64,000 bases of DNA from Candidatus Saccharimonadales bacterium. Its GTDB lineage: Bacteria > Patescibacteriota > Saccharimonadia > Saccharimonadales > UBA10212. Positions 1,714 to 58,193 of the stretch are shown here, one piece after another. The stretch covers positions 418,717 to 482,716 of the forward strand of contig JBEKOJ010000001.1 in the NCBI GenBank assembly GCA_049521895.1. Reading direction: 5' to 3'. Under the pieces are notes generated by a model. It saw only the letters and a program-made list of their open reading frames with translations. It was not told where the DNA came from and searched no databases. How positions within the stretch are numbered: position 1 is the stretch's first letter; every line of letters starts with the position of its first letter. A program made the position numbers and the translations under genes.

Positions 1714-3159
1714 ATGAAAATAGGGATTGTCGGTTGGGGCTTGGAGAGCCAGAGCGCATTCAGGTATTTTGGCCCTAGCCACGACTACCTGATAGTTAAC
1801 GAGTCAGCGCAGGATAATTTTCCGCCGGAGTCGAACAAGATCAAAGTCCGTTTCCTGGCCAATAAGGCTCCGATTGGAATTCCAGGACAAGTGCAGGATC
1901 TAAGCTATCTGAAGGGCATCGAAGAATGCGATAAGATCATTTATCAGCCCACGGCTTATTTTAACCTCCAGAAGGTTTTTGGCGACAACCCAGAATTTTG
2001 GAAGAAGGCCACTACTGTTTACGATATTTATTTTGAGAATACTCCAACCCAAAATATAATCGGCGTCACCGGCACCAAAGGCAAAGGCACCACATCTACG
2101 CTGATCGCCAAGATACTCGAGGCCAGCGGCAAAACCGTCCATCTTGGCGGCAATATCGGTACGCCCATCTTGGACTTGCTGCCCAGCATTAAAGCAAGTG
2201 ATTGGCTGGTATGGGAGCTGGCTAACTTCCAGCTAAAAGCTGCTTCTTATAGCCCGCATATTGCCGTCTGTTTAATGATTACTGAAGAACATCTGGACTG
2301 GCATCCGAGCATGGAGGATTACCTGGAGGCCAAAAGTAATCTCTTCCGACACCAAAAAGCCGAAGACGTTGCCATTTACTTTGCTAAAAATGAATACTCC
2401 AAAAAAATAGCCGGGTATTCACCCGGTAAAAAAATTCCTTACTACGAACCGCCAGGAGCATACATTCGCGAAGACGGTGTCATTGTGATTGACGAAACAG
2501 AGGTAATGAACAAGAATGAAGTTAAACTACTGGGCGAACATAATTTACAAAATATTTGTGCTGCCCTTACGGTTGTTTTTGAGGCGCAAGGGAGCGTTGA
2601 CCCCAGTAGAATAGTCCATGGCGGAATTCCACAGGGTCAATCCAGTGGAGCTTTAGCCCCGCTAAACGCCGTAGGCGGCTCCACGTGGATTGACAAAGCA
2701 AAAACAGTATTATCTAGCTTTAGCGGCTTAGAACATCGCTTGGAGTTCGTACGGGCCTTAGATGGCGTAAAATATTACAACGATTCTTTTGCCACCACCC
2801 CCGAGTCAGCAGTGGTCGCCCTAAAGACTTTTAGCGCACCAAAGGTTGTCATCTTGGGCGGATCAGACAAGGGTTTGTCCTTTGACCCGCTTGCCGATGA
2901 GGTTGCCAAAGGAAATGTTCGCAAAGCCGTAGCCATCGGGACTACAGCAGATAAAATAGTCAGTCTACTCAAAGAACACGGCTTCACGAATACCATAACT
3001 GGCTTGAATAAAATGACTGATATCGTGGCAGCTGCCCGCGAAGCTTCTCAGCCTGGCGACGTGGTATTACTAAGTACAGGCTGCGCCAGTTTTGGGCTGT
3101 TTAAGGATTATAAAGACCGCGGCGAACAGTTCAAGAAAGCTGTTCAAGCCCAGCAGTGA
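1714..3159 (+). CDS. murD: UDP-N-acetylmuramoylalanine--D-glutamate ligase
   Basis: 481 aa. Shows the Mur ligase P-loop GVTGTKGKGTT, GLEHRLEF and NDSFATTPES motifs in MurD order. Carries an extra ~31-aa segment (see 2597-2694). Confidence 0.9.
   Translation: MKIGIVGWGLESQSAFRYFGPSHDYLIVNESAQDNFPPESNKIKVRFLANKAPIGIPGQVQDLSYLKGIEECDKIIYQPTAYFNLQKVFGDNPEFWKKATTVYDIYFENTPTQNIIGVTGTKGKGTTSTLIAKILEASGKTVHLGGNIGTPILDLLPSIKASDWLVWELANFQLKAASYSPHIAVCLMITEEHLDWHPSMEDYLEAKSNLFRHQKAEDVAIYFAKNEYSKKIAGYSPGKKIPYYEPPGAYIREDGVIVIDETEVMNKNEVKLLGEHNLQNICAALTVVFEAQGSVDPSRIVHGGIPQGQSSGALAPLNAVGGSTWIDKAKTVLSSFSGLEHRLEFVRALDGVKYYNDSFATTPESAVVALKTFSAPKVVILGGSDKGLSFDPLADEVAKGNVRKAVAIGTTADKIVSLLKEHGFTNTITGLNKMTDIVAAAREASQPGDVVLLSTGCASFGLFKDYKDRGEQFKKAVQAQQ
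2597..2694 (+). other. in-frame 93-nt insertion inside murD containing a 16/17-nt inverted repeat, bracketed by TTGAC direct repeats
   Basis: TTGAC occurs at 2597-2601 and 2690-2694, exactly 93 nt apart. The arms are GTCAATCCAGTGGAGC (2636-2651) and GCTCCACGTGGATTGAC (2678-2694). The encoded ~31 aa lie where E. coli MurD, as I recall its sequence, has no residues. Confidence 0.5.
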
Positions 3160-8416: not shown

Positions 8417-9445
8417 GTGAACTTAAAGCAAAACGTCAGCTTGGCAAACTATAGCACCATGCGTTTGGGCGGCAACGCCCGTTATTTTGCCGAGGCTGCG
8501 TCTCTGCAGGATGTAGAGCAACTTGGCAAATGGGCTAAAGAGCAAGCTTTGCCGATAATTACCGTCGGCGGCGGCAGTAACATTGTCTGGCGGGACGAGG
8601 GTTTTGACGGCTTGGTGATAGCTGACTGCATCAAAGGTCGGGAGATAGTTAACAAAGACGGCAATGCAACGGTTAAGATTGGCGGCGGCGAAAACTGGGA
8701 CGAAGTTGTTGGCTGGAGCGTAGAACAGGGCCTAAGTGGTATTGAAGCGTTATCTTTGATCCCAGGTACGGCCGGCGCCACACCAGTACAAAATGTTGAA
8801 GCCTACGGCCAGCAAATTGCTGACTCATTGCAAAAAGTCCTGGTTTACGATTTTCGAGACAATACGTTTCGCGAGTTGACTCCTGACCAGTGTAGTTTAA
8901 GCTACCGCAACAGCCGTTTTAAGGATGTTGACCACGGCCGGTTTCTAATTTGCGCCATCTGGCTTAAGCTCAACCGCGGGCAGATGAGCCCGCCCTTCCA
9001 CCATGGCTTGCAAACGTACATTGACCAACGTGGTATTACCGATTTTTCGCCAGTTAGTATCCGCCGAGCAGTTATAGATATCCGCAGTGCTAAACTCCCC
9101 GACCCCGCCAAAATGGCTAACAATGGCTCCTTTTTTAAAAACCCGTTTGTCCCACAAGAGCAATTTGAGAAGTTATCTAGACAGTTTCCGGATATTCTCA
9201 ACTATCCAGCCAATGATGGCAGTATCAAACTTTCGGCTATGTGGCTAATAGAGCATGCCGGTTTTAAGGCCGGTTACCGCGACGAGCCTACCGGCATGGC
9301 TTTGTGGCCCAAGCACGCTTTGGTATTTATAAACGAGCACGCTAAATCCACTGCCGACCTGTTAGCTTTCAGGCAGAAGATTGTTGACAAAGTCCAAGAA
9401 AAATTCGGCATCACACTCGAGCAAGAACCCGAATTACTGCCCTGA
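8417..9445 (+). CDS. murB: UDP-N-acetylenolpyruvoylglucosamine reductase
   Basis: The FAD-binding N-terminus is LANYSTMRLGGNARYF...GGGSNIV, and the family C-terminus is present. I start it at the in-frame GTG 8417, downstream of a TATAAT at 8404-8409, because the 8192 ATG lies inside the divergent gene. Confidence 0.85.
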   Translation: MNLKQNVSLANYSTMRLGGNARYFAEAASLQDVEQLGKWAKEQALPIITVGGGSNIVWRDEGFDGLVIADCIKGREIVNKDGNATVKIGGGENWDEVVGWSVEQGLSGIEALSLIPGTAGATPVQNVEAYGQQIADSLQKVLVYDFRDNTFRELTPDQCSLSYRNSRFKDVDHGRFLICAIWLKLNRGQMSPPFHHGLQTYIDQRGITDFSPVSIRRAVIDIRSAKLPDPAKMANNGSFFKNPFVPQEQFEKLSRQFPDILNYPANDGSIKLSAMWLIEHAGFKAGYRDEPTGMALWPKHALVFINEHAKSTADLLAFRQKIVDKVQEKFGITLEQEPELLP

Positions 9446-10860: not shown

Positions 10861-12384
10861 ATGCAAGAAACAAACGAGAAAATCGGTCGTTTAATTTACC
10901 AGATCCGGCAAGAGCGCGGTTTAACGCAGTCGTCTTTTGCCAAAAAACTCGGTACCAGCCAGTCGGCTGTTAACCGGATTGAGCACGGCAGGCAAAATCT
11001 AAGCCTGGACACGCTAGGGCGCATCAGTGATGTACTTAATAAACAGATCATTAGCCTTGGCGAGGGTGGTATCAACCTGCGTGTAGAAGGCGGCCACGAG
11101 TTGCACGGCGAGATTACACTAAAAACCAGCAAGAACGCTGCTGTAGCTCTTTTATGCGCGAGCTTACTAAACCGAGGTATGACCCGCTTTAAATCTTTTC
11201 CACGCATTGAGGAAGTTTTTCGTATCATTGAAGTTCTGGAGAGCATCGGCGTACGGATCAGGTGGCTGAATGGCAATGATCTGGAAATCAAAGTGCCCGC
11301 CCAGCTCGACCTGGAAGCTATGAATAAAGAGTCGGCGCGTAAAACGCGTAGTGTACTAATGTTGCTGGGGCCGTTGATGCATCACCATTCCAGTTTTAAA
11401 ATCCCGTATGCCGGCGGCTGTAAGCTAGGCAGACGTACTGTGGCGCCACACCTATTTGCGCTGGAGCAATTTGGCGTTAACGTAATTGCCACAAGCGGGC
11501 ACTACAATGTGAGAGTTAAAAAGAAAGTTCCCCAGGAAAGAGTCGTGTTATATGAACAAGGTAATACCGTAACTAATAACGTCCTTATGGCCGCGGCGCT
11601 CACCAAAGGCACCACCGTTATTCAATCAGCCAGTGCCGATTACATGGTCCAGGACTTGTGCCACTTTCTAGCCAAACTTGGTGTTAAGATAGACGGCATC
11701 GGCTCACCGGTGCTGACAGTCGAAGGTGTCGGCTCCATAAAGAAAAATGTAACTTACACTCCAACCGAAGATCCGATTGAAGCAATGCTATTTATTGCCG
11801 CTGCCGTAACTACCAATTCGCAGCTGACTATCCGCAGGGTTCCACTCTACTGGATTGGCTTGGAACTTCTTAAGCTACACAAGATGGGGTTAAAGACAGA
11901 AATCAGCCCCACCTATAAAGCTGATAATGGTGTGGTTGATCTGGCTGACATAAAGGTCCATAAACACAATGGCGAACTAACTGCACTAGAAGAAAAATTG
12001 CACCCCAATCTTTGGCCCGGTATTAACCCTGATAATATTCCCTACTTTGTCCCGATTGCGGCTGTTTGCCGTGGTCGAACGGTTATCAACGACTGGATGT
12101 ACGAAAACCGGGCAATTTATTTTACGGAGATGACCAAAATCGGTATGAATATAGAGCTGGCTGACCCACACCGTCTGTATATAGAGGGGCCGACCAAGTT
12201 CAATAAAGCCGACGTAGTTTCACCACCAGCGCTCCGGCCGGCTAGTTTACTGTTGATTGGCATGCTAGCAGCCGATGGTGTCAGTATGCTTCGTAACGTT
12301 TACACCATCAACCGTGGCTATGAGGACTTGGCTGAGCGTCTCAATGGTTTGGGCGCCCATATCGAAGTCATCCACGAAGTCTAA
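10861..12384 (+). CDS. murA: UDP-N-acetylglucosamine 1-carboxyvinyltransferase fused to an N-terminal XRE-type HTH domain
   Basis: 507 aa. Residues 1-65 are HTH-like (GLTQSSFAKKLGTSQSAVNRIEHG). The remainder is an EPSP/MurA fold with the catalytic Cys context PYAGGCKLGRR. Confidence 0.85.
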   Translation: MQETNEKIGRLIYQIRQERGLTQSSFAKKLGTSQSAVNRIEHGRQNLSLDTLGRISDVLNKQIISLGEGGINLRVEGGHELHGEITLKTSKNAAVALLCASLLNRGMTRFKSFPRIEEVFRIIEVLESIGVRIRWLNGNDLEIKVPAQLDLEAMNKESARKTRSVLMLLGPLMHHHSSFKIPYAGGCKLGRRTVAPHLFALEQFGVNVIATSGHYNVRVKKKVPQERVVLYEQGNTVTNNVLMAAALTKGTTVIQSASADYMVQDLCHFLAKLGVKIDGIGSPVLTVEGVGSIKKNVTYTPTEDPIEAMLFIAAAVTTNSQLTIRRVPLYWIGLELLKLHKMGLKTEISPTYKADNGVVDLADIKVHKHNGELTALEEKLHPNLWPGINPDNIPYFVPIAAVCRGRTVINDWMYENRAIYFTEMTKIGMNIELADPHRLYIEGPTKFNKADVVSPPALRPASLLLIGMLAADGVSMLRNVYTINRGYEDLAERLNGLGAHIEVIHEV

Positions 12385-12500: not shown

Positions 12501-12652
12501 ACTTTGACTAAAGTCAAAGCATTTAACAATTACACGTTTACCATTTACCAATTATTTTTCATCTAACATTTGTCGAGTCTGGAAAATGACAGTTGGTAAA
12601 TTAATGTAAATTGTGAATTGAAAAATGTAAAATGTCCGCCAGAGGCGGACTG

Positions 12653-12729
12653 TGCCCCGGTAGCTCAGCTGGATAGAGCAGGAGACTTCTAAGCTCAAGG
12701 CCGCAGGTTCGAATCCTGCCCGGGGTACC
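12653..12729 (+). tRNA. tRNA-Arg (anticodon TCT)
   Basis: Cloverleaf by eye. Loop is CTTCTAA and T-arm is GCAGG-TTCGAAT-CCTGC, with CCA encoded. The anticodon stem has only three Watson-Crick pairs (G27/A43 and A31/G39 are mismatched). Confidence 0.8.
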
Positions 12730-12734
12730 ACAAA

Positions 12735-12760
12735 AATGCCCAGCCTCGCGTTGGGCATTT
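12735..12760 (+). terminator. rho-independent terminator after tRNA-Arg(TCT)
   Basis: ATGCCCA-GCCTCGCGT-TGGGCAT stem-loop followed by TTTTT. Confidence 0.7.
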
Positions 12761-12813
12761 TTGTGGTTCTCTGGTAGATTCGGTTCTGCGGCTCGACAGC
12801 TTTAGCTGGCGAT

Positions 12814-12898
12814 AGCCGCAGGTTCGGTCATCCAGCTCGCCTGCAGGAGCTTGCTTCGAGAACGAGCGCAGATGTGCGCTCACCCTGCCCGGGGTACC
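12814..12898 (+). repeat. second, interrupted copy of the tRNA-Arg(TCT) 3' part (GCCGCAGGTTCG + 57-nt insert + CCTGCCCGGGGTACCA)
   Basis: The 12 nt before and the 16 nt after the insert are identical to tRNA positions 12703-12714 and 12718-12729... in order. The insert (12826-12882) replaces only the last three T-loop bases. Confidence 0.85.
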
Positions 12899-13003
12899 AA
12901 AGTTCCGTGCCTGCCAACCTTAAATACGCCTAGTTAGCATTAGAGATCGAGAAATCACAGACCGGTAGTGGGGTGATTTGGCCTCTTTTGTTAGTATGTA
13001 AGT

Positions 13004-22766: not shown

Positions 22767-23230
22767 TGAATCCGGCGGTCTATTAATATCTGTAGTGTTT
22801 TAATCACACCCTCTATAATTGCCAAGATAGCGCCGCCAACTACCGCACCTGTATAGAATCGTTGAGATCTACCGTACGCTTTCAAAGAATCATCTACTAA
22901 ACCAGCGGGGTATATAAAAAACTTCTTACCTATAAAGTGGCGGCCTTTAATAGAAGTTACATATAAAGTCCAGTTACTACTAAGCCAATCTATGTATCCG
23001 TGTTCCTTAGATGCAACTAATATTGCGGCAACAGTACTCTCGCTTGGTTTTCTGAGTTTCCGAGATTTTATGTAGTCTTGAGTGAGGGCGAGCAATGCCT
23101 CGTTTTGTGCCTTGAAGGTTTGGGTGTGAGAAAGTATCTCGTACCTATTAGAATCTATGTACCTTACTAACTTGTACATATCTTTCATCTCTGCCATACG
23201 CTGAATTATACCTCTTGTCTGCGCAATCAT
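22763..23230 (-). CDS. hypothetical IS passenger protein with C-terminal hydrophobic helix
   Basis: 155 aa. Its start overlaps the transposase stop by 4 nt (ATGA), implying co-translation with the transposase. Confidence 0.55.
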   Translation of the reverse strand: MIAQTRGIIQRMAEMKDMYKLVRYIDSNRYEILSHTQTFKAQNEALLALTQDYIKSRKLRKPSESTVAAILVASKEHGYIDWLSSNWTLYVTSIKGRHFIGKKFFIYPAGLVDDSLKAYGRSQRFYTGAVVGGAILAIIEGVIKTLQILIDRRIH

Positions 23231-24111
23231 GTCTTACTCCGTGCAGATATGCTTACCTTGTCCATCAAAGCCCAAAACATAGGCTGAAAATCGTTTCTAT
23301 GGCTCTGCCTAAATGCATATTCGTTCACGTAGTTTTGTAAATGCTGAGAGCTAACGTGTCTATATACGCCCCGCATTCCACGCTTCATGTTACCCCAAAA
23401 GTTCTCAATGTTTTGGGTGTGAGTATCACCATCAACGTAATGCCTTTTGCCATGCTGGATAGTCTCATGGTAATAGCCTTTTTTATAAAGGCGTTTGTAG
23501 GAGCGGTGCTCATCAGAATAGATGGTAGACTCTCGCTGGATGTTCTCTTCAACTTCCCGTAATAACACTAACTCACCAGCAGACTTAACGTGCTTGGCTC
23601 TGACTACTCCGCCACGCTCGGCCATACCAAAGACCACAGGATTATCCTTCCTTGACTTATGAGGCTTACGAATGGTAGAGCGCTTTAGCGGGTCGGCGTG
23701 CATATAAGTTTCATCAATCTCAATTTCACCGTATAATCGCTCGCCATCATCACTCATCATAGATCTAATCTGGTGAAACATCCGCCACGCGGTTTTGTAA
23801 GTTACCCCTGTTTCACGCTCTAACTGTTTGGCTGAGATTCCGGCTCTAGTAGCGGCCATAATGAATATAGCCTCAAACCATATAGTTAAAGGTGTACTAG
23901 ATTTGTGGAAGATGGTATTTGCAGTAGGAGATGTAGAACCACCACAGTATTCGCAAGCATAAACTTTCATACTCCTTCGTTTGTGGTGAGGAGTTATCTT
24001 CTCACACTTCTTGCAAGTTATGCCCTCTGGGTACAGATATTCTTTCAACCATTCCAGACAAGCATCCTCATTTGGGAAATCTATCTTTAACTGTTGTCGT
24101 GTATATTTCAT
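23227..24111 (-). CDS. IS1595-family (ISXO2-like) DDE transposase
   Basis: 294 aa. Has an N-terminal Cys-rich zinc ribbon (CKKCE...CEYCG), an HTH (GISAKQLERETGVTYKTAWRM), EIDETY and DEHRSY acidic motifs. Confidence 0.9.
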   Translation of the reverse strand: MKYTRQQLKIDFPNEDACLEWLKEYLYPEGITCKKCEKITPHHKRRSMKVYACEYCGGSTSPTANTIFHKSSTPLTIWFEAIFIMAATRAGISAKQLERETGVTYKTAWRMFHQIRSMMSDDGERLYGEIEIDETYMHADPLKRSTIRKPHKSRKDNPVVFGMAERGGVVRAKHVKSAGELVLLREVEENIQRESTIYSDEHRSYKRLYKKGYYHETIQHGKRHYVDGDTHTQNIENFWGNMKRGMRGVYRHVSSQHLQNYVNEYAFRQSHRNDFQPMFWALMDKVSISARSKT

Positions 24112-47670: not shown

Positions 47671-47774
47671 TGGTAGCGGGGAGAGGACGGCGTCAGGGCT
47701 AACACGCCTGACTATATCCGCTCCTGCGTTACTCGGAATAAATTCCTGCGTGACTTAGTCGCTACACGAACCTC
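47671..47774 (-). repeat. second, interrupted copy of the tRNA-fMet 3' part (GAGGTTCG + 80-nt insert + CCTCTCCCCGCTACCA)
   Basis: The 16-nt 3' end is identical to the tRNA. The T-stem 5' strand is repeated at 47767-47774. The insert spans 47687-47766. Confidence 0.8.
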
Positions 47775-47823
47775 CCGCTCACTACGTTCGCTCAACGAGG
47801 TTCTCGCCCTTCTCCGAACCATG

Positions 47824-47850
47824 AAAAAAGACCCATCAGAAGATGAGTCA
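47824..47850 (-). terminator. rho-independent terminator after tRNA-fMet
   Basis: On the minus strand: GACTCATC-TTCT-GATGGGTC followed by TTTTTT. Confidence 0.7.
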
Positions 47851-47857
47851 TTTTTCA

Positions 47858-47932
47858 TGGTAGCGGGGAGAGGACTCGAACCTCTGACCTCGTGGTTATG
47901 AGCCACGCGAGCTGCCACTGCTCCACCCCGCG
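47858..47932 (-). tRNA. initiator tRNA-fMet (anticodon CAT)
   Basis: 5' CGCGGGGTGGAGCAG as in bacterial initiators. Position 1:72 is a C/U mismatch. CCA is encoded. Confidence 0.85.
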
Positions 47933-55272: not shown

Positions 55273-55359
55273 TATTCTGCCATCATGGCAGATATTTGTT
55301 CATAAATTAATTGCTTAAGGTTGATTTTTGGCCTAATAAAACAGATAATGTAAGGTGTT

Positions 55360-55478
55360 TCGTCGGAATCGAGGCACCGGCTTCCGTGAGCTTGTAGACC
55401 GTGCTCACTTTCAGCCTCGGCTCGCTTCCTCCTCTCAATTTCGCAAACGGTCGCTAGCGCCCCGATTCGCAAAATTGC
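55360..55478 (-). ncRNA. L-type structured element, copy 4 (orphan; lies in the comEC upstream region, same strand)
   Basis: On the minus strand it has an 11-bp hairpin with two G-U pairs (55437-55476), GAGAGGAGGAAGC and a closing helix. It ends in ATTCCGACGA, but no tRNA follows. The comEC start is 88 nt downstream. Confidence 0.5.
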
Positions 55479-55664
55479 AAGAGAAATTTTGGACGCCCAA
55501 ACTCACACACTTGGATGCAGTGCAAGACGCCGCCGAGGAACGCCCGCAGGTGTATTACAATACATTGAGGACGTACCGCCGGCGAGCAACGTAGCAGTGC
55601 GCCAAAAAGCCAGCAGGGTTTACGGCTTTGCCGGGAAGCAGTGTTGGCTGGTGTGTGAATTTGG

Positions 55665-55740
55665 GGGCCCATAGCTCAGTTGGTAGAGCAGAGGCCTTTT
55701 AAGCCTCGTGTCGCGGGTTCGAGACCCGCTGGGCCCTCCA
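55665..55740 (+). tRNA. tRNA-Lys (anticodon TTT)
   Basis: Cloverleaf by eye. Anticodon arm is GAGGC-CTTTTAA-GCCTC. CCA is encoded. Confidence 0.9.
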
Positions 55741-55748
55741 ATGAAAGT

Positions 55749-55775
55749 GCCCGGCCTTGCGCCGGGTATTTTCAT
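55749..55775 (+). terminator. rho-independent terminator after tRNA-Lys(TTT)
   Basis: CCCGGC-CTTGC-GCCGGG stem-loop followed by TATTTT. Confidence 0.65.
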
Positions 55776-55827
55776 TGGTTGTCTTAGTCGGTTTCGGTTC
55801 CGCGACCAAGACGCAAAGCGGATTGTA

Positions 55828-55916
55828 GTCGCGGGTTCGGTCATCCAGGTCGCGCGCAGTCCGCCTGAAGCGGACGAGCACGGCTGCAGATGTGCGCTGT
55901 CCCGCTGGGCCCTCCA
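55828..55916 (+). repeat. second, interrupted copy of the tRNA-Lys(TTT) 3' part (GTCGCGGGTTCG + 61-nt insert + CCCGCTGGGCCCTCCA)
   Basis: The flanks are identical to the tRNA. The insert (55840-55900) shares GTCATCCAGSTCGC and GCAGATGTGCGCT blocks with the insert at 12826-12882. Confidence 0.85.
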
Positions 55917-56021
55917 ACCATAAGCATTTTGACCTCTATAATTAACAGGCTACAATCTTATATAATTGCACACAACAAGCTAATTATTGACAACAGTTTA
56001 TAATTATGCTTATATGTGTGT

Positions 56022-56261
56022 ATGTCTCGGGAAAGAAATTCCACTTACTACAGGGATTATGCTGATATGGCACAAGAAATGATTAATGGCTTAAGCGATG
56101 GTGATATGCCACACGTAGGAACACTGCAATATATGTACGGCATTAGTGAAGCGGGTCGTGTGCAAGCAGAACTTGTTATGGACCATATTTTGGCTGACCC
56201 TCAACTAACAGAACAGTTTGACGCTACTGTTACTGCGTTTCAAGCAGAACAAGCGGCTTAA
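56022..56261 (+). CDS. hypothetical small acidic protein (island cassette 1)
   Basis: ORF in the A+T-rich cassette. TTGACA-N17-TTATAT (55987-56015) ends 6 nt before this ATG, so the mRNA may be leaderless. The ORF-track start is 56016. Confidence 0.4.
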   Translation: MSRERNSTYYRDYADMAQEMINGLSDGDMPHVGTLQYMYGISEAGRVQAELVMDHILADPQLTEQFDATVTAFQAEQAA

Positions 56262-56271
56262 TCTTGATAAT

Positions 56272-56499
56272 ATGGAAAGCAGGATTGGTTGGCTACATAA
56301 TACTTCAGGGGATGAAATACCTGTAGATCCGACATTAATTACAGATACATCTGGTGAATTAGTGGACGTAACGCCACAACAACTAGAGCAAATACTTGCC
56401 AATGACCCTGACTCTATTTTGCAGTTAATGGCTTGGGGTAGTTTTCAGAGCAGACAAGAAGCTGAGGCATTTCTTGCTGAGAGCGAGCAAGCCTCTTAA
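56272..56499 (+). CDS. hypothetical small acidic protein (island cassette 1)
   Basis: 75-aa ORF starting at MESRIG, 8 nt after the previous stop. No recognisable motif. Confidence 0.4.
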   Translation: MESRIGWLHNTSGDEIPVDPTLITDTSGELVDVTPQQLEQILANDPDSILQLMAWGSFQSRQEAEAFLAESEQAS

Positions 56500-56506
56500 T
56501 TTCGGC

Positions 56507-56534
56507 TGCTACAGCCTTCACGGTGGCCCTCCAC
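56507..56534 (+). repeat. 28-nt cassette-boundary repeat TGCTACAGCCTTCACGGTGGCCCTCCAC, copy 1
   Basis: Identical to 57660-57687. Its 3' half resembles the tRNA-Lys acceptor end (TGGGCCCTCCA). Confidence 0.9.
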
Positions 56535-56647
56535 AGATAAGACCTAGTGCATCTTCCAAACAGATACTCCCGCCCAGTAATTAATTGACAATCTAGGCAA
56601 GTGATAGTATTCTTAACTTTTTAAAGAGTCGAGGTAGTATTGTTACC

Positions 56648-57613
56648 ATGACAGAACGCAATCCGCAGTTATCGCAGAAGGTTATTGATCTCGCTTGGGA
56701 AGCTGCACAGGCCAGTGACCGAGCATTCGATGAGCGTGATCTAGCCAACTTTAAAATACTAAGTGATATGGCTGCAACTGTTATGCTATTGCCCACTACC
56801 GCGTTTAATTTTCAACGTGCTGAAATTCCATCTGCCCAAGTACCGGAAATTGACGTTGAAACAACTGAACGGCTGGAGGTTCTACCCACTGATTACCGTA
56901 AATTAGTACTAAACCGCTATACCGAAAAAAATGAAGTAGTAGGTACCCAAATTAATGCCAACACCCTGCCTGAACACTATCGGCTGCCGGGGTTAAGTGA
57001 ATTTATAGAAGAGGTCATAGCTTTAGCTCCGGTCTATGAAGCATTTATCAAAAATAGCTGGGAGCCAGAAGTAGTTTTTGTGCCCAACAACCTAAGCCTC
57101 GAGCAGTGGGACAGCCTGCTCATGGGCCATACATTGCCAAATGGCCGTAAGTCCAAGGGCCTATCACGTGCCTGGAGAGTTAATGAAGTTTATGACCAAG
57201 GAACCGACGCTAACCCATGGTATTTAGCTATTGTATGTAGTACTGAAAGACCCCCGCTTACTAATGTAAGTCCTGACGGTGAACACGGCTCTCGAGCCAA
57301 TAAAACCATTAGAATATTGTCAGAACTGCCAAACATAGCTGACGTCTCATCTCCAGAAGCCATTATTAATCAAGCTAGTCCATCAGAAGAAATGTATTGT
57401 GCTTTTCAGCTTGCTCGCTTAGAGCGTGGTGAGCAACCCGTAGACACCGAGACCTGGACCATTGGCAAAGAAAATATTAGCCTGGGATCTCTGTTCTTTA
57501 GCTTTCCTATATACAAGCGGCAGGTTTTCTCTTTCTTTAGCGATCGTGCTCACCGCCTTGAAGGTAGCGGTGTCCGCCCCTCAGCTAACGGTAAAGATCT
57601 AGTTCTCGGCTAG
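56648..57613 (+). CDS. hypothetical protein (island cassette 2)
   Basis: 321-aa ORF with no motif I recognise. It is preceded by TAATTAATTGACAA, a promoter-like sequence homologous to that of cassette 1. Confidence 0.55.
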   Translation: MTERNPQLSQKVIDLAWEAAQASDRAFDERDLANFKILSDMAATVMLLPTTAFNFQRAEIPSAQVPEIDVETTERLEVLPTDYRKLVLNRYTEKNEVVGTQINANTLPEHYRLPGLSEFIEEVIALAPVYEAFIKNSWEPEVVFVPNNLSLEQWDSLLMGHTLPNGRKSKGLSRAWRVNEVYDQGTDANPWYLAIVCSTERPPLTNVSPDGEHGSRANKTIRILSELPNIADVSSPEAIINQASPSEEMYCAFQLARLERGEQPVDTETWTIGKENISLGSLFFSFPIYKRQVFSFFSDRAHRLEGSGVRPSANGKDLVLG

Positions 57614-57659
57614 GGACATAATTACTAATATGTAGGTGTTGGCTACCCTGAATTGTAGT

Positions 57660-57687
57660 TGCTACAGCCTTCACGGTGGCCCTCCAC
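57660..57687 (+). repeat. 28-nt cassette-boundary repeat, copy 2
   Basis: Identical to 56507-56534. It is followed by the terminator hairpin at 57692-57716. Confidence 0.9.
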
Positions 57688-57691
57688 GGAA

Positions 57692-57716
57692 AGCTCATCA
57701 TTTGGATGAGTTTTTA
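57692..57716. terminator. terminator hairpin between the island and the convergent membrane-protein gene
   Basis: CTCATC-ATTTG-GATGAG stem-loop followed by TTTTT. Confidence 0.65.
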
Positions 57717-58193
57717 TTTGTGTCTCTTAATATAATGACTTCTACTGAACCAGACCAGCAATAGGCTTACTAGAGTACCAATACCAATAATTATTGCTTC
57801 TTGCTTTTCTAGCTGGTTCCAAATGCTAAGGTTGCTAAAATTAATGTTCGCCCAGTTGCTCAGTAGCGGACCGACCGTTAGGGCCAGCAAACCGCCGCTA
57901 GCCAGAGCTGGTACGATTTGTAAGTAAAAACGTGAATGTGTGGCGTGTTTTCTAGTCAGTAAAAGCGTTATCGCCAGCGGCACGGCAATCATTATTAGAT
58001 TGATGGCGTTGCCGCTTAGCAGCTGGCCTGATGACACCAAGTGGCTCAACCAATGCTGCGTGCTACCGCTAGCATAGGTGGCAGCTGTAAAGCCGGTGCA
58101 GAGCGCCAAAAATCCCAGGGCCGCATCGGCCCGTAACAAAAAAGTTAACACCAGAGGCGCAGCAAGCAGAGCAATCAGTACCAATTCGGCCAT
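57714..58193 (-). CDS. polytopic membrane protein, unknown function
   Basis: 159 aa with four to five hydrophobic helices. Confidence 0.55.
   Translation of the reverse strand: MAELVLIALLAAPLVLTFLLRADAALGFLALCTGFTAATYASGSTQHWLSHLVSSGQLLSGNAINLIMIAVPLAITLLLTRKHATHSRFYLQIVPALASGGLLALTVGPLLSNWANINFSNLSIWNQLEKQEAIIIGIGTLVSLLLVWFSRSHYIKRHK

Follow-up and report, generated by a model that had tools for sequence, protein, structure and literature searches.

What lies behind the tRNA-Lys(TTT) gene of a Candidatus Saccharimonadales bacterium, where the intact tRNA is followed by a second, interrupted copy of its own 3' end? The gene is located within a stretch of 64,000 nucleotides (nt) of assembly GCA_049521895.1 (contig JBEKOJ010000001.1, positions 418,717 to 482,716), the whole of which is referred to as the window, and the copy is part of a unit of 176 nt, positions 55741-55916, which stands directly 3' of the tRNA and contains no open reading frame (ORF). 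Based on the computational analysis of this unit and its relatives, we favor, at a probability of about 45%, the view that it is a gene-less integrative module of tRNA-anchored cassette arrays, its fold being a structure-specific recombination site.

The unit is built around the 3' third of the tRNA, referred to as S, which is present twice more downstream, once inverted (S*) and once direct (S'). The order of the parts is S within the tRNA, a terminator, S*, a small hairpin and S', the last being composed of T', a hairpin domain P1-P3 and a tail (positions in Table 1). The terminator is the first part of the inserted module: a G+C-rich hairpin with a T run (TTGTCTTAGT) directly after the gene, as expected for an intrinsic terminator, its stem 3' arm itself containing the T run TATTTTCATT. 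Comparable terminator hairpins were detected in nearly all units. The initial annotation had described, after the terminator, the two tRNA-derived arms GTCGCGGGTTCG and CCCGCTGGGCCCTCCA separated by a 61-nt insert, and had regarded this unit and that behind tRNA-Arg(TCT) as built on one architecture, in which the arms are specific to each tRNA and the insert is shared at its ends; these descriptions hold in every respect. Both units are interrupted after the identical TTCG of the T loop, in agreement with the single interruption site proposed there. The insert is located between T-loop positions 57 and 58, and nucleotides 59-60 of the T loop are often retained after it. The left block of the insert, TTCGGTCATCCAGSTCGC, occurs in the window only at these two places (chance expectation 0.04; two occurrences in none of 100 shuffles), and the right block, GCAGATGTGCGCT, is exact at both. 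A further upstream segment noted as shared, TTCGGTTC.GCG, is indeed present in both units (55792-55803 for Lys, 12779-12790 for Arg), but it belongs to the inverted copy of the 3' third of the local tRNA.

The boundaries of the module are set by the tRNA. The module starts right after the CCA, and its final 16 nt reproduce those of the tRNA (T-stem 3' strand, acceptor 3' strand, U and CCA), so that an exact repeat at 55725-55740 and 55901-55916 flanks the Lys module and the tRNA stays intact. The module is therefore bounded by direct repeats, like elements integrated at tRNA genes. The same type of direct repeat was found for the Arg and fMet modules, which together with the Lys module make three modules behind the 12 tRNA genes of the window; a scan of all 12 gave no unit behind the other nine. 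The fMet module carries a diverged insert with an additional hairpin at 47692-47712, and its spacer is of a type, GGAGAAGGGCGAGAACC, common to the type-A units behind tRNA-fMet in loci L037 and L033. Unit size ranges from 166 to 190 nt.

Insertion at a tRNA gene is recognized by the features seen here, namely direct repeats, a terminator supplied to the tRNA by the module itself, exact CCA boundaries, stacking, and cargo nearby. Integrative elements are well known to leave partial-tRNA repeats and to accrete in tandem at tRNA genes (bioRxiv 10.1101/2020.12.28.424599; PMC9897764). The likeness to the attachment sites attL and attR of tRNA-integrated elements, such as P4-like islands, integrative and conjugative elements, tycheposons and integrase-less elements of the CIME (cis-mobilizable element) type, extends to three points: direct repeats of the tRNA 3' end stand on both sides of the inserted DNA, the tRNA remains intact with the element providing what follows CCA, and successive insertions stack behind one tRNA with cargo of toxin or defence type. 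In contrast to these elements, the module of about 176 nt carries neither an integrase nor any other gene, a conserved, covarying hairpin interrupts its distal repeat in the T loop, an inverted copy of the tRNA segment precedes that repeat, and conservation of the entire module spans distant genomes and different tRNA types. Four features are new relative to the known cases of tRNA-gene insertion: no gene is present, the unit is tiny, it includes the inverted copy, and its covarying fold is conserved.

Stacking and cargo are both present in the window. At the Lys locus one strand carries the end of tRNA-Lys, GGCCCTCCA, at four places in 2 kb, namely in the tRNA, in the unit tail, at 56525 and at 57678, and the order of elements is tRNA, unit (176 nt), a 617-nt cassette, a 1153-nt cassette and a hairpin with a T run. 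The two cassettes are closed by the identical 27-mer TGCTACAGCCTTCACGGTGGCCCTCCA, which resembles a degenerate 3' half of tRNA-Lys including a pseudo anticodon arm. The ORFs of cassette 1 gave no match in Pfam, and the cassette ORFs gave none in PHROG or PADLOC; the cassette starts have in common CCA, 2-3 variable nucleotides and (C/G)ATAAG. As read from the sequence, the hairpin at the end of the array is probably the original terminator of tRNA-Lys, displaced by three insertions.

Similar arrays were found elsewhere. Locus L021, from another organism, carries an array of the same kind with the same cassette end as in the window, and L030 shows the order tRNA-Asn, cargo, unit, cargo, unit. 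The tRNA-to-unit gap in L025 amounts to 3.6 kb and contains an IS3 transposase, a CAAX protease and a helix-turn-helix protein, with an ORF just past the unit that is assigned to Fic by the HPFREGNGR motif only. Loci L026 and L048 on one side and L028 on the other may represent an empty/occupied pair with modules about 90% identical, the L028 island being located at CCA, between the tRNA position and the unit. This island, which parts the tRNA-Arg position from its unit, includes a gene for a reverse transcriptase of 278 amino acids (RVT_1, YVDD motif; 1735-2571, minus strand), which may be of retron or defence type. In L023 and L047 a YafQ toxin gene abuts the P1-P3 hairpin, which there lacks the T' stem.

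Modules are also inserted in front of other modules. In L029 a type-A module is inserted precisely where the CCA of tRNA-fMet would otherwise meet a second module, and the terminator of that second module matches the one of the fMet module in the window at 33 of 35 positions; this locus has one module more than the window, positioned exactly at CCA. Two stacked modules were also found in L024 and L043. In L043 a truncated pseudo-tRNA (about 800-900 in the oriented contig) lies just upstream of tRNA-Asp, with the same body, a different anticodon region and no acceptor 3' strand, and a second copy of the same terminator and S* follows the module tail.

The unit forms a family well beyond the window. 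The initial annotation had proposed a profile scan for further copies and held that their absence, together with a single recent gene conversion, would speak against it; many copies were found, one in a genome of the Genome Taxonomy Database (GTDB) and 33 in metagenomes, and thus the unit is not accounted for by one gene conversion involving two loci. The GTDB copy, L014, belongs to a different Saccharibacteria species with a ComEC protein 40% identical, and is located behind its own tRNA-Lys(TTT), which adjoins comEC. Its arms match the local tRNA, T' (GTCCTGGGTTCG), tail (CCCAGTGGGCCCTCCA) and anti-T, the 3' end of S* (TTCTGGTTCCAGGAC), all being changed accordingly, and its insert is about 84% identical to the Arg insert of the window. 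The closest GTDB relative, L008, lacks the unit.

For the metagenomes, JGI contigs were scanned once for the two insert blocks, and 33 of the 36 loci obtained were real; the other three (L035, L046 and L049) are chance matches in GC-rich genes. Where the tRNA ahead of the unit was on the contig, it was Asn(GTT), Lys(CTT), Lys(TTT), Met(CAT), Arg(TCT), Pro(TGG) or Asp(GTC). In seven of these loci the tail matched the final 16 nt of the local tRNA exactly, and in six more it carried one or two differences. The insert variants are independent of tRNA type: the Arg insert of the window differs from the Lys insert of L020 at 3 positions and from the Lys insert of the window at more than 14. Unrelated inserts interrupt the T loop at the same place in L013 and in the second modules of L024 and L029. 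The tails of L018, L039, L050, L032, L019 and L041 are decayed or carry extra insertions, including 24 nt between the T-stem and acceptor strands in L032 (about 9357-9400), about 57 nt with recurring GAGCCTGAGCG/AGTCGAA motifs within the acceptor strand of L019 (oriented, after 9567), and about 125 nt ahead of CTACCA in L041 (after 9619). Literature searches, for which coverage was incomplete, yielded only the general phenomenon of partial-tRNA repeats and no description of the module.

What structure does this layout specify? The region 55710-55810, comprising S, terminator and S*, folds into one near-continuous hairpin of -67 kcal/mol, against -32.7 +/- 3.3 for shuffled sequences (z -10.6), and the C-to-T changes in S* retain G.U pairing. 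S* pairs with 19-28 of the 31 nt of the tRNA 3' third in 15 of the 17 tRNA-adjacent units, and it is able to pair with either S, in the tRNA itself, or S', the downstream interrupted copy. In the latter case anti-T, the 3' part of S* that includes the TTCGGTTC.GCG block, forms helix H1 with T'; in most units anti-T prefers its own T' over every non-cognate T'. When folded alone, the module makes a closed three-way junction, its final CCA pairing with the TGG after the terminator. Within the insert, P1 is formed by GUCAUC and GAUG.UGC, P2 is a variable helix that covaries, an internal loop has a conserved GCA opposite GA, and P3 is a variable hairpin, often with a G-CUUG-C loop; in the Lys unit P3 is GTCCGCCTGAAGCGGAC (GTCCGC-CTGAA-GCGGAC, 55859-55875).

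The fold is conserved. An alignment of 20 distinct units gave a consensus of 31 pairs, of which 20 show compensatory double changes; P1 was kept outside this judgement because it was fixed by the search pattern. Paired cells amount to 92.6%, compared with 77.1% for shuffled partners (the observed value was reached in none of 500 trials) and 30-39% for partners slid by 1-3 columns. G.U pairs outnumber A.C combinations (81 against 15 cells, and still 31 against 15 after removal of three invariant wobble columns), indicating that the folding strand is the tRNA-sense strand. The unit thus conserves imperfect inverted repeats by structure over sequence, the mark of integron attC sites. A covariance model (CM) made from the units detected in the window the Arg and Lys units at 102 and 96 bits, the fMet unit at 18 bits, a hairpin upstream of tRNA-Lys at 16 bits and nothing else, and only the known units over 305 kb of related loci. 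In Rfam only the 12 tRNAs pass the gathering threshold, the Lys and Arg units giving sub-threshold noise in E-value scans, and neither transfer-messenger RNA (tmRNA) nor YrlA was found here by ARAGORN and Rfam.

Table 1. Positions of the tRNA genes, module parts, cassettes and other features within the 64,000-nt window.
Feature	Position	Strand	Remarks
tRNA-Lys(TTT)	55665-55740	+	intact, encoded CCA at end; ARAGORN; Rfam tRNA 70.3 bits
S (tRNA 3' third)	55710-55740	+	T-stem 5' strand, T loop, T-stem 3' strand, acceptor 3' strand, discriminator, CCA
Terminator hairpin	55738-55778	+	18 pairs; flanked by A run and T run; pairs tRNA CCA with TGG
S*	55776-55806	+	degenerate inverted copy of tRNA 3' third; its 3' end CGGTTCCGCGAC is anti-T
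Small variable hairpin	55807-55827	+	at tip of helix H1; 5 of 5 pairs with compensatory changes
T' (GTCGCGGGTTCG)	55828-55839	+	exact copy of tRNA T-stem 5' strand plus TTCG; pairs with anti-T (helix H1)
Insert P1-P3	55840-55900	+	61 nt, one hairpin domain; CM 95.8 bits
Tail (CCCGCTGGGCCCTCCA)	55901-55916	+	exact copy of last 16 nt of tRNA; right-hand direct repeat of module
Cassette 1	55917-56533	+	two small ORFs, 56016-56261 and 56218-56499; closed by 27-nt repeat TGCTACAGCCTTCACGGTGGCCCTCCA at 56507-56533
Cassette 2	56534-57686	+	ORF of 321 amino acids at 56648-57613; closed by 27-nt repeat TGCTACAGCCTTCACGGTGGCCCTCCA at 57660-57686
Hairpin with T run (AAAGCTCATC..GATGAGTTTTTATTT)	57690-57720	+	read from sequence
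tRNA-Arg(TCT)	12654-12730	+	ARAGORN, Rfam; bears sister module
Arg module	12731-12899	+	terminator; S* 12764-12792; T' 12815-12826; insert 12827-12883; tail 12884-12899; CM 102 bits
tRNA-fMet	47858-47932	-	followed by third module
fMet module	47671-47857	-	terminator; S* 47797-47821; partial T' GAGGTTCG 47767-47774; tail 47671-47686; CM 18 bits, E 0.013
P1-P3-like hairpin	55529-55587	+	shares CGCCCGCAG ... GAGGACG; CM 16 bits, E 0.05; fold z -3.3
IS1595-family transposase	23227-24111	-	DDE_Tnp_IS1595 and zinc ribbon
MurA (EPSP_synthase fold)	10861-12384	+	fused N-terminal Cro/C1-type helix-turn-helix domain

How could such a unit move? Under the integrative-module reading, modules would be inserted, and perhaps removed, by site-specific recombination at the tRNA 3' end, catalyzed by an enzyme whose gene lies elsewhere. 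The recombination site, in single-stranded, folded form, would be the S*:S' duplex from which the hairpin is extruded, the folded strand mimicking the double-stranded tRNA-gene target in the manner of integron attC and of the folded attP of CTX phage, and a folded single strand would explain the mobility of a unit of only 166-190 nt. Integron attC and folded CTX attP have unpaired central regions. Crossover would take place in the T-loop region, as Williams in 2002 reportedly put forward for integrases that use the T arm; in the fold, wobble or mismatched pairs together with the extruded hairpin would disturb this region. The resemblance to integron attC and CTX-type attP includes the definition of the site by structure over sequence, with imperfect inverted repeats around a disturbed centre, strand-specific folding, and imitation of a double-stranded target by the fold as in CTX attP; as with attC, the units follow cargo in tandem arrays at a fixed anchor, and gene-less cassettes exist among integrons also. 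Unlike these systems, the module has no link to IntI or Xer and lacks RYYYAAC/GTTRRRY, and the head of the array is a tRNA gene, with comEC upstream, rather than attI or dif with an intI gene. A single-stranded DNA form of the module is putative, and its G.U-rich helices point to RNA at least equally.

A number of observations weigh against this reading. Except for the IS1595 transposase, Pfam recognized only housekeeping genes among the window ORFs tested, several of which gave no match. No recombinase was detected by Pfam among the ORFs in or beside any unit, and a crude screen for the tyrosine recombinase motif HxxR[HKR][ST] found none in 85 ORFs of related loci; the sole match to this motif in the window falls within the IS1595 transposase and is a false positive. 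Neither an excised nor a circular form was found, its detection needing polymerase chain reaction or long-read data, and among the loci compared no close relative had a strict empty site for the type-A module at the corresponding place. The strain polymorphism of the units suggested for examination in the initial annotation was not seen in the contigs sampled: the Lys unit is present in all five loci spanning comEC (identical ComEC), and RimK contigs (24 read, representing 4 distinct places) have the same genes across the array in 4 of 4. The integron core sites RYYYAAC/GTTRRRY are missing, GTTCGGT having C in place of R and no RYYYAAC partner being present. The ORF cassettes of the window end in a different, unstructured tRNA-like site and, given these unlike ends, the term cassette array may mix element types. 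On viral contigs, scans for the two-block pattern and for a 17-mer of the cassette end gave zero matches, then two chance matches in GC-rich coding DNA. With DNA energy parameters the fold of the unit is weak, and P2 of the Lys unit needs G.U pairs, which together favor RNA. Two contigs of the same population, L004 and L007, end at position 1 inside tRNA-Lys (tRNA positions 67 and 34); these ends could be assembly breaks at a variable or repeated region and prove nothing.

The alternative that survives best takes the unit as RNA, and we consider it possible, with a likelihood clearly below that of the integrative module. The unit would then be a three-part switch in transcripts that read through the tRNA terminator, or a stand-alone noncoding RNA. 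In one state S* would zip onto the tRNA 3' third, the terminator growing to a hairpin of about 48 bp and the tRNA being unfolded; in the other, S', by helix H1 and tail, would capture S* and leave the tRNA free, and S' might even replace the tRNA 3' third. P1-P3 would be a domain for protein binding or tertiary contact and the tail a mimic of the tRNA 3' end, and the unit could serve in the quality control or processing of tRNA precursors made by read-through, or could titrate a factor with affinity for tRNA 3' ends. The compensatory changes and conserved G.U pairs on the tRNA-sense strand, the strong RNA fold described above against the weak fold with DNA parameters, the adaptation of S, S* and S' to the local tRNA in 7 tRNA types, the insert identity of about 84% between genomes with ComEC only 40% identical and the frequent stable G-CUUG-C loop in P3 are all in agreement with this. 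The module also shares with attenuators, T-box leaders and small RNAs from tRNA 3' external spacers the arrangement of three consecutive segments with mutually exclusive pairings around a terminator, the matching of sequence to a particular tRNA and the location in the tRNA 3' flank. Against an RNA function, however, a strong terminator stands ahead of every unit and no promoter is evident, so that little RNA is expected; such a function has no need of tandem stacking, of kilobases of cargo between unit and tRNA or of exact CCA boundaries; and no Rfam family matches. Unlike attenuators and T-box leaders, the module has its competing segments after the terminator, not before; it copies the tRNA, where T-box leaders read its anticodon or NCCA end; and, unlike RNA switches, it has no common regulated gene downstream.

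At a comparably tentative level, the unit might represent a new class of its own, in one of two forms. The first would be a structure-specific, attC-like cassette system served by a recombinase in trans, with tRNA 3' ends as the anchor and the arms rebuilt to suit each tRNA. The second would be an RNA device controlling tRNA maturation in cis in these ultra-small bacteria, with three states, which would unfold the adjoining tRNA and replace its 3' third.

Still less probable, and in our view doubtful, is that only the hairpin P1-P3 is mobile. It would target the T loop (GGTTCG|A, the bar marking the insertion point) of spare tRNA 3' copies, as an IS200/IS605-derived element or one like repetitive extragenic palindromic (REP) sequences, and the rest of the unit would be attachment-site debris. 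The identical T-loop position in all units, the spread of variants over tRNA types and genomes, the hairpins without T' stem directly after the YafQ gene in L023 and L047, and the other small inserts within tails can all be read in this way. The CM matches in 64 kb are two strong and two weak, three of them tRNA-flanking modules and the fourth (55529-55587) in the tRNA-Lys leader; the hairpin has just 2-3 copies in this stretch, none away from tRNA arrays, and no TnpA- or RAYT-like gene was seen. Unlike IS200/IS605-derived or REP-like elements, the units have neither many dispersed copies nor an associated TnpA or RAYT gene. S* is left unexplained, and the unrelated inserts that interrupt L013 and the second modules of L024 and L029 at the same place make the interruption look like part of the design and not like the trace left by a single element. 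Both the RNA device and the mobile T-loop hairpin are compatible with the integrative-module reading, as a mobile module could also encode an RNA.

The least probable alternative, largely refuted, is that the units are inert scars of larger tRNA-integrated elements, nearly all deleted to leave terminator, arms and attR, with a small hairpin inserted later: displaced partial tRNA copies are the usual by-product of integration (bioRxiv 10.1101/2020.12.28.424599; PMC9897764), six loci have decayed or further interrupted tails (L018, L039, L050, L032, L019 and L041) and the unit holds no gene or recombinase, but independent decay would not yield the identical five-part layout behind 7 tRNA types, nor does it explain the inverted copy complementary to each local tRNA, the 20 covarying pairs or the near-identical blocks in distant genomes (20 distinct sequences aligned).

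Several other candidates were rejected. T-box-like sensing does not apply, the unit having the same sense as the tRNA and no complementarity to its anticodon. A guide RNA of TnpB/IscB type or an IS110 bridge RNA was dismissed, as no nuclease or recombinase gene adjoins and the would-be guide segments pair mutually. The register of a kink-turn in P2/P3 does not fit, and a likeness to signal recognition particle RNA is without Rfam support. With archaeal split tRNAs, non-canonical tRNA introns and tRNA mimics (tmRNA, YrlA and viral tRNA-like structures) the unit shares a T arm and acceptor strand with a structured insert in the T loop, as well as a CCA end. Unlike the split or intron-containing tRNAs of archaea, it has only the 3' third, a complete and uninterrupted tRNA standing 87 nt upstream; it has no bulge-helix-bulge, P1 pairs insert with insert instead of exon, and the host is bacterial.

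The region upstream of tRNA-Lys was also analyzed. The leader (55318-55664) is highly structured (-123.7 kcal/mol) and gave neither an Rfam match nor tRNA-derived segments; the idea of a mirror-image unit was dropped for the lack of such segments. It contains the P1-P3-like hairpin of Table 1, the membership of which in the module family is uncertain. A promoter-like sequence, TTGATT..GATAAT, is located about 310 nt from tRNA-Lys in the window and is conserved directly upstream of tRNA-Lys in L008, L020 and L027.

A 7-bp GC hairpin, GTCCGCC-N3-4-GGCGGAC, recurs in the window (12634-12650 and 55859-55875) and in L026, L028, L048, L019, L032 and L030. It forms P3 of the insert or the tip of H1, or is located on the immediate 5' side of tRNA genes; in L030 it directly follows the unit tail. 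One of these is the P3-like hairpin pointed out previously on the 5' side of tRNA-Arg, which is present with its coordinates shifted by 2 (12634-12650, not 12636-12652); in its GTCCGCC-AGA-GGCGGAC form it scores as a minus-strand terminator. Module shuffling among tRNA loci, for which this hairpin had been taken as a hint, is sustained by the modular composition of the units and by insert variants crossing tRNA types, but the 5' hairpin is weak evidence for it, scoring as a minus-strand terminator and having a stem that occurs in several contexts.

The tRNA genes of the window, 12 by ARAGORN and all confirmed by Rfam, are mostly singletons amid housekeeping genes, with CCA encoded in 12 of 12. 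Proteins encoded around the Lys unit and in the window include ComEC, YebC, RuvABC, type IV pilus components and RecA, and together with related GTDB contigs they place the window in a Candidatus Saccharibacteria genome. The IS1595 transposase is the only transposase among the window ORFs scanned (about 20 by Pfam; 43-64 kb also by precomputed annotations).

Saccharibacteria and other members of the candidate phyla radiation (CPR) have tiny genomes with few recognized mobile elements, which bears on how they gain genes. The modules mark tRNA genes at which cassettes accumulate, carrying a reverse transcriptase, toxins and unknown ORFs, and such cassettes may recombine at the modules. Should the fold act as DNA, the principle of the folded single strand known from attC and CTX would be extended to tRNA-gene targets; if it acts as RNA, it would be a new tRNA-linked riboregulator. 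Either class, if true, would be a widespread undescribed structured nucleic-acid element in Saccharibacteria. The covariance model provides a marker for variable regions in CPR genomes, and the tRNA-like fragments that it describes call for caution on the part of annotators.

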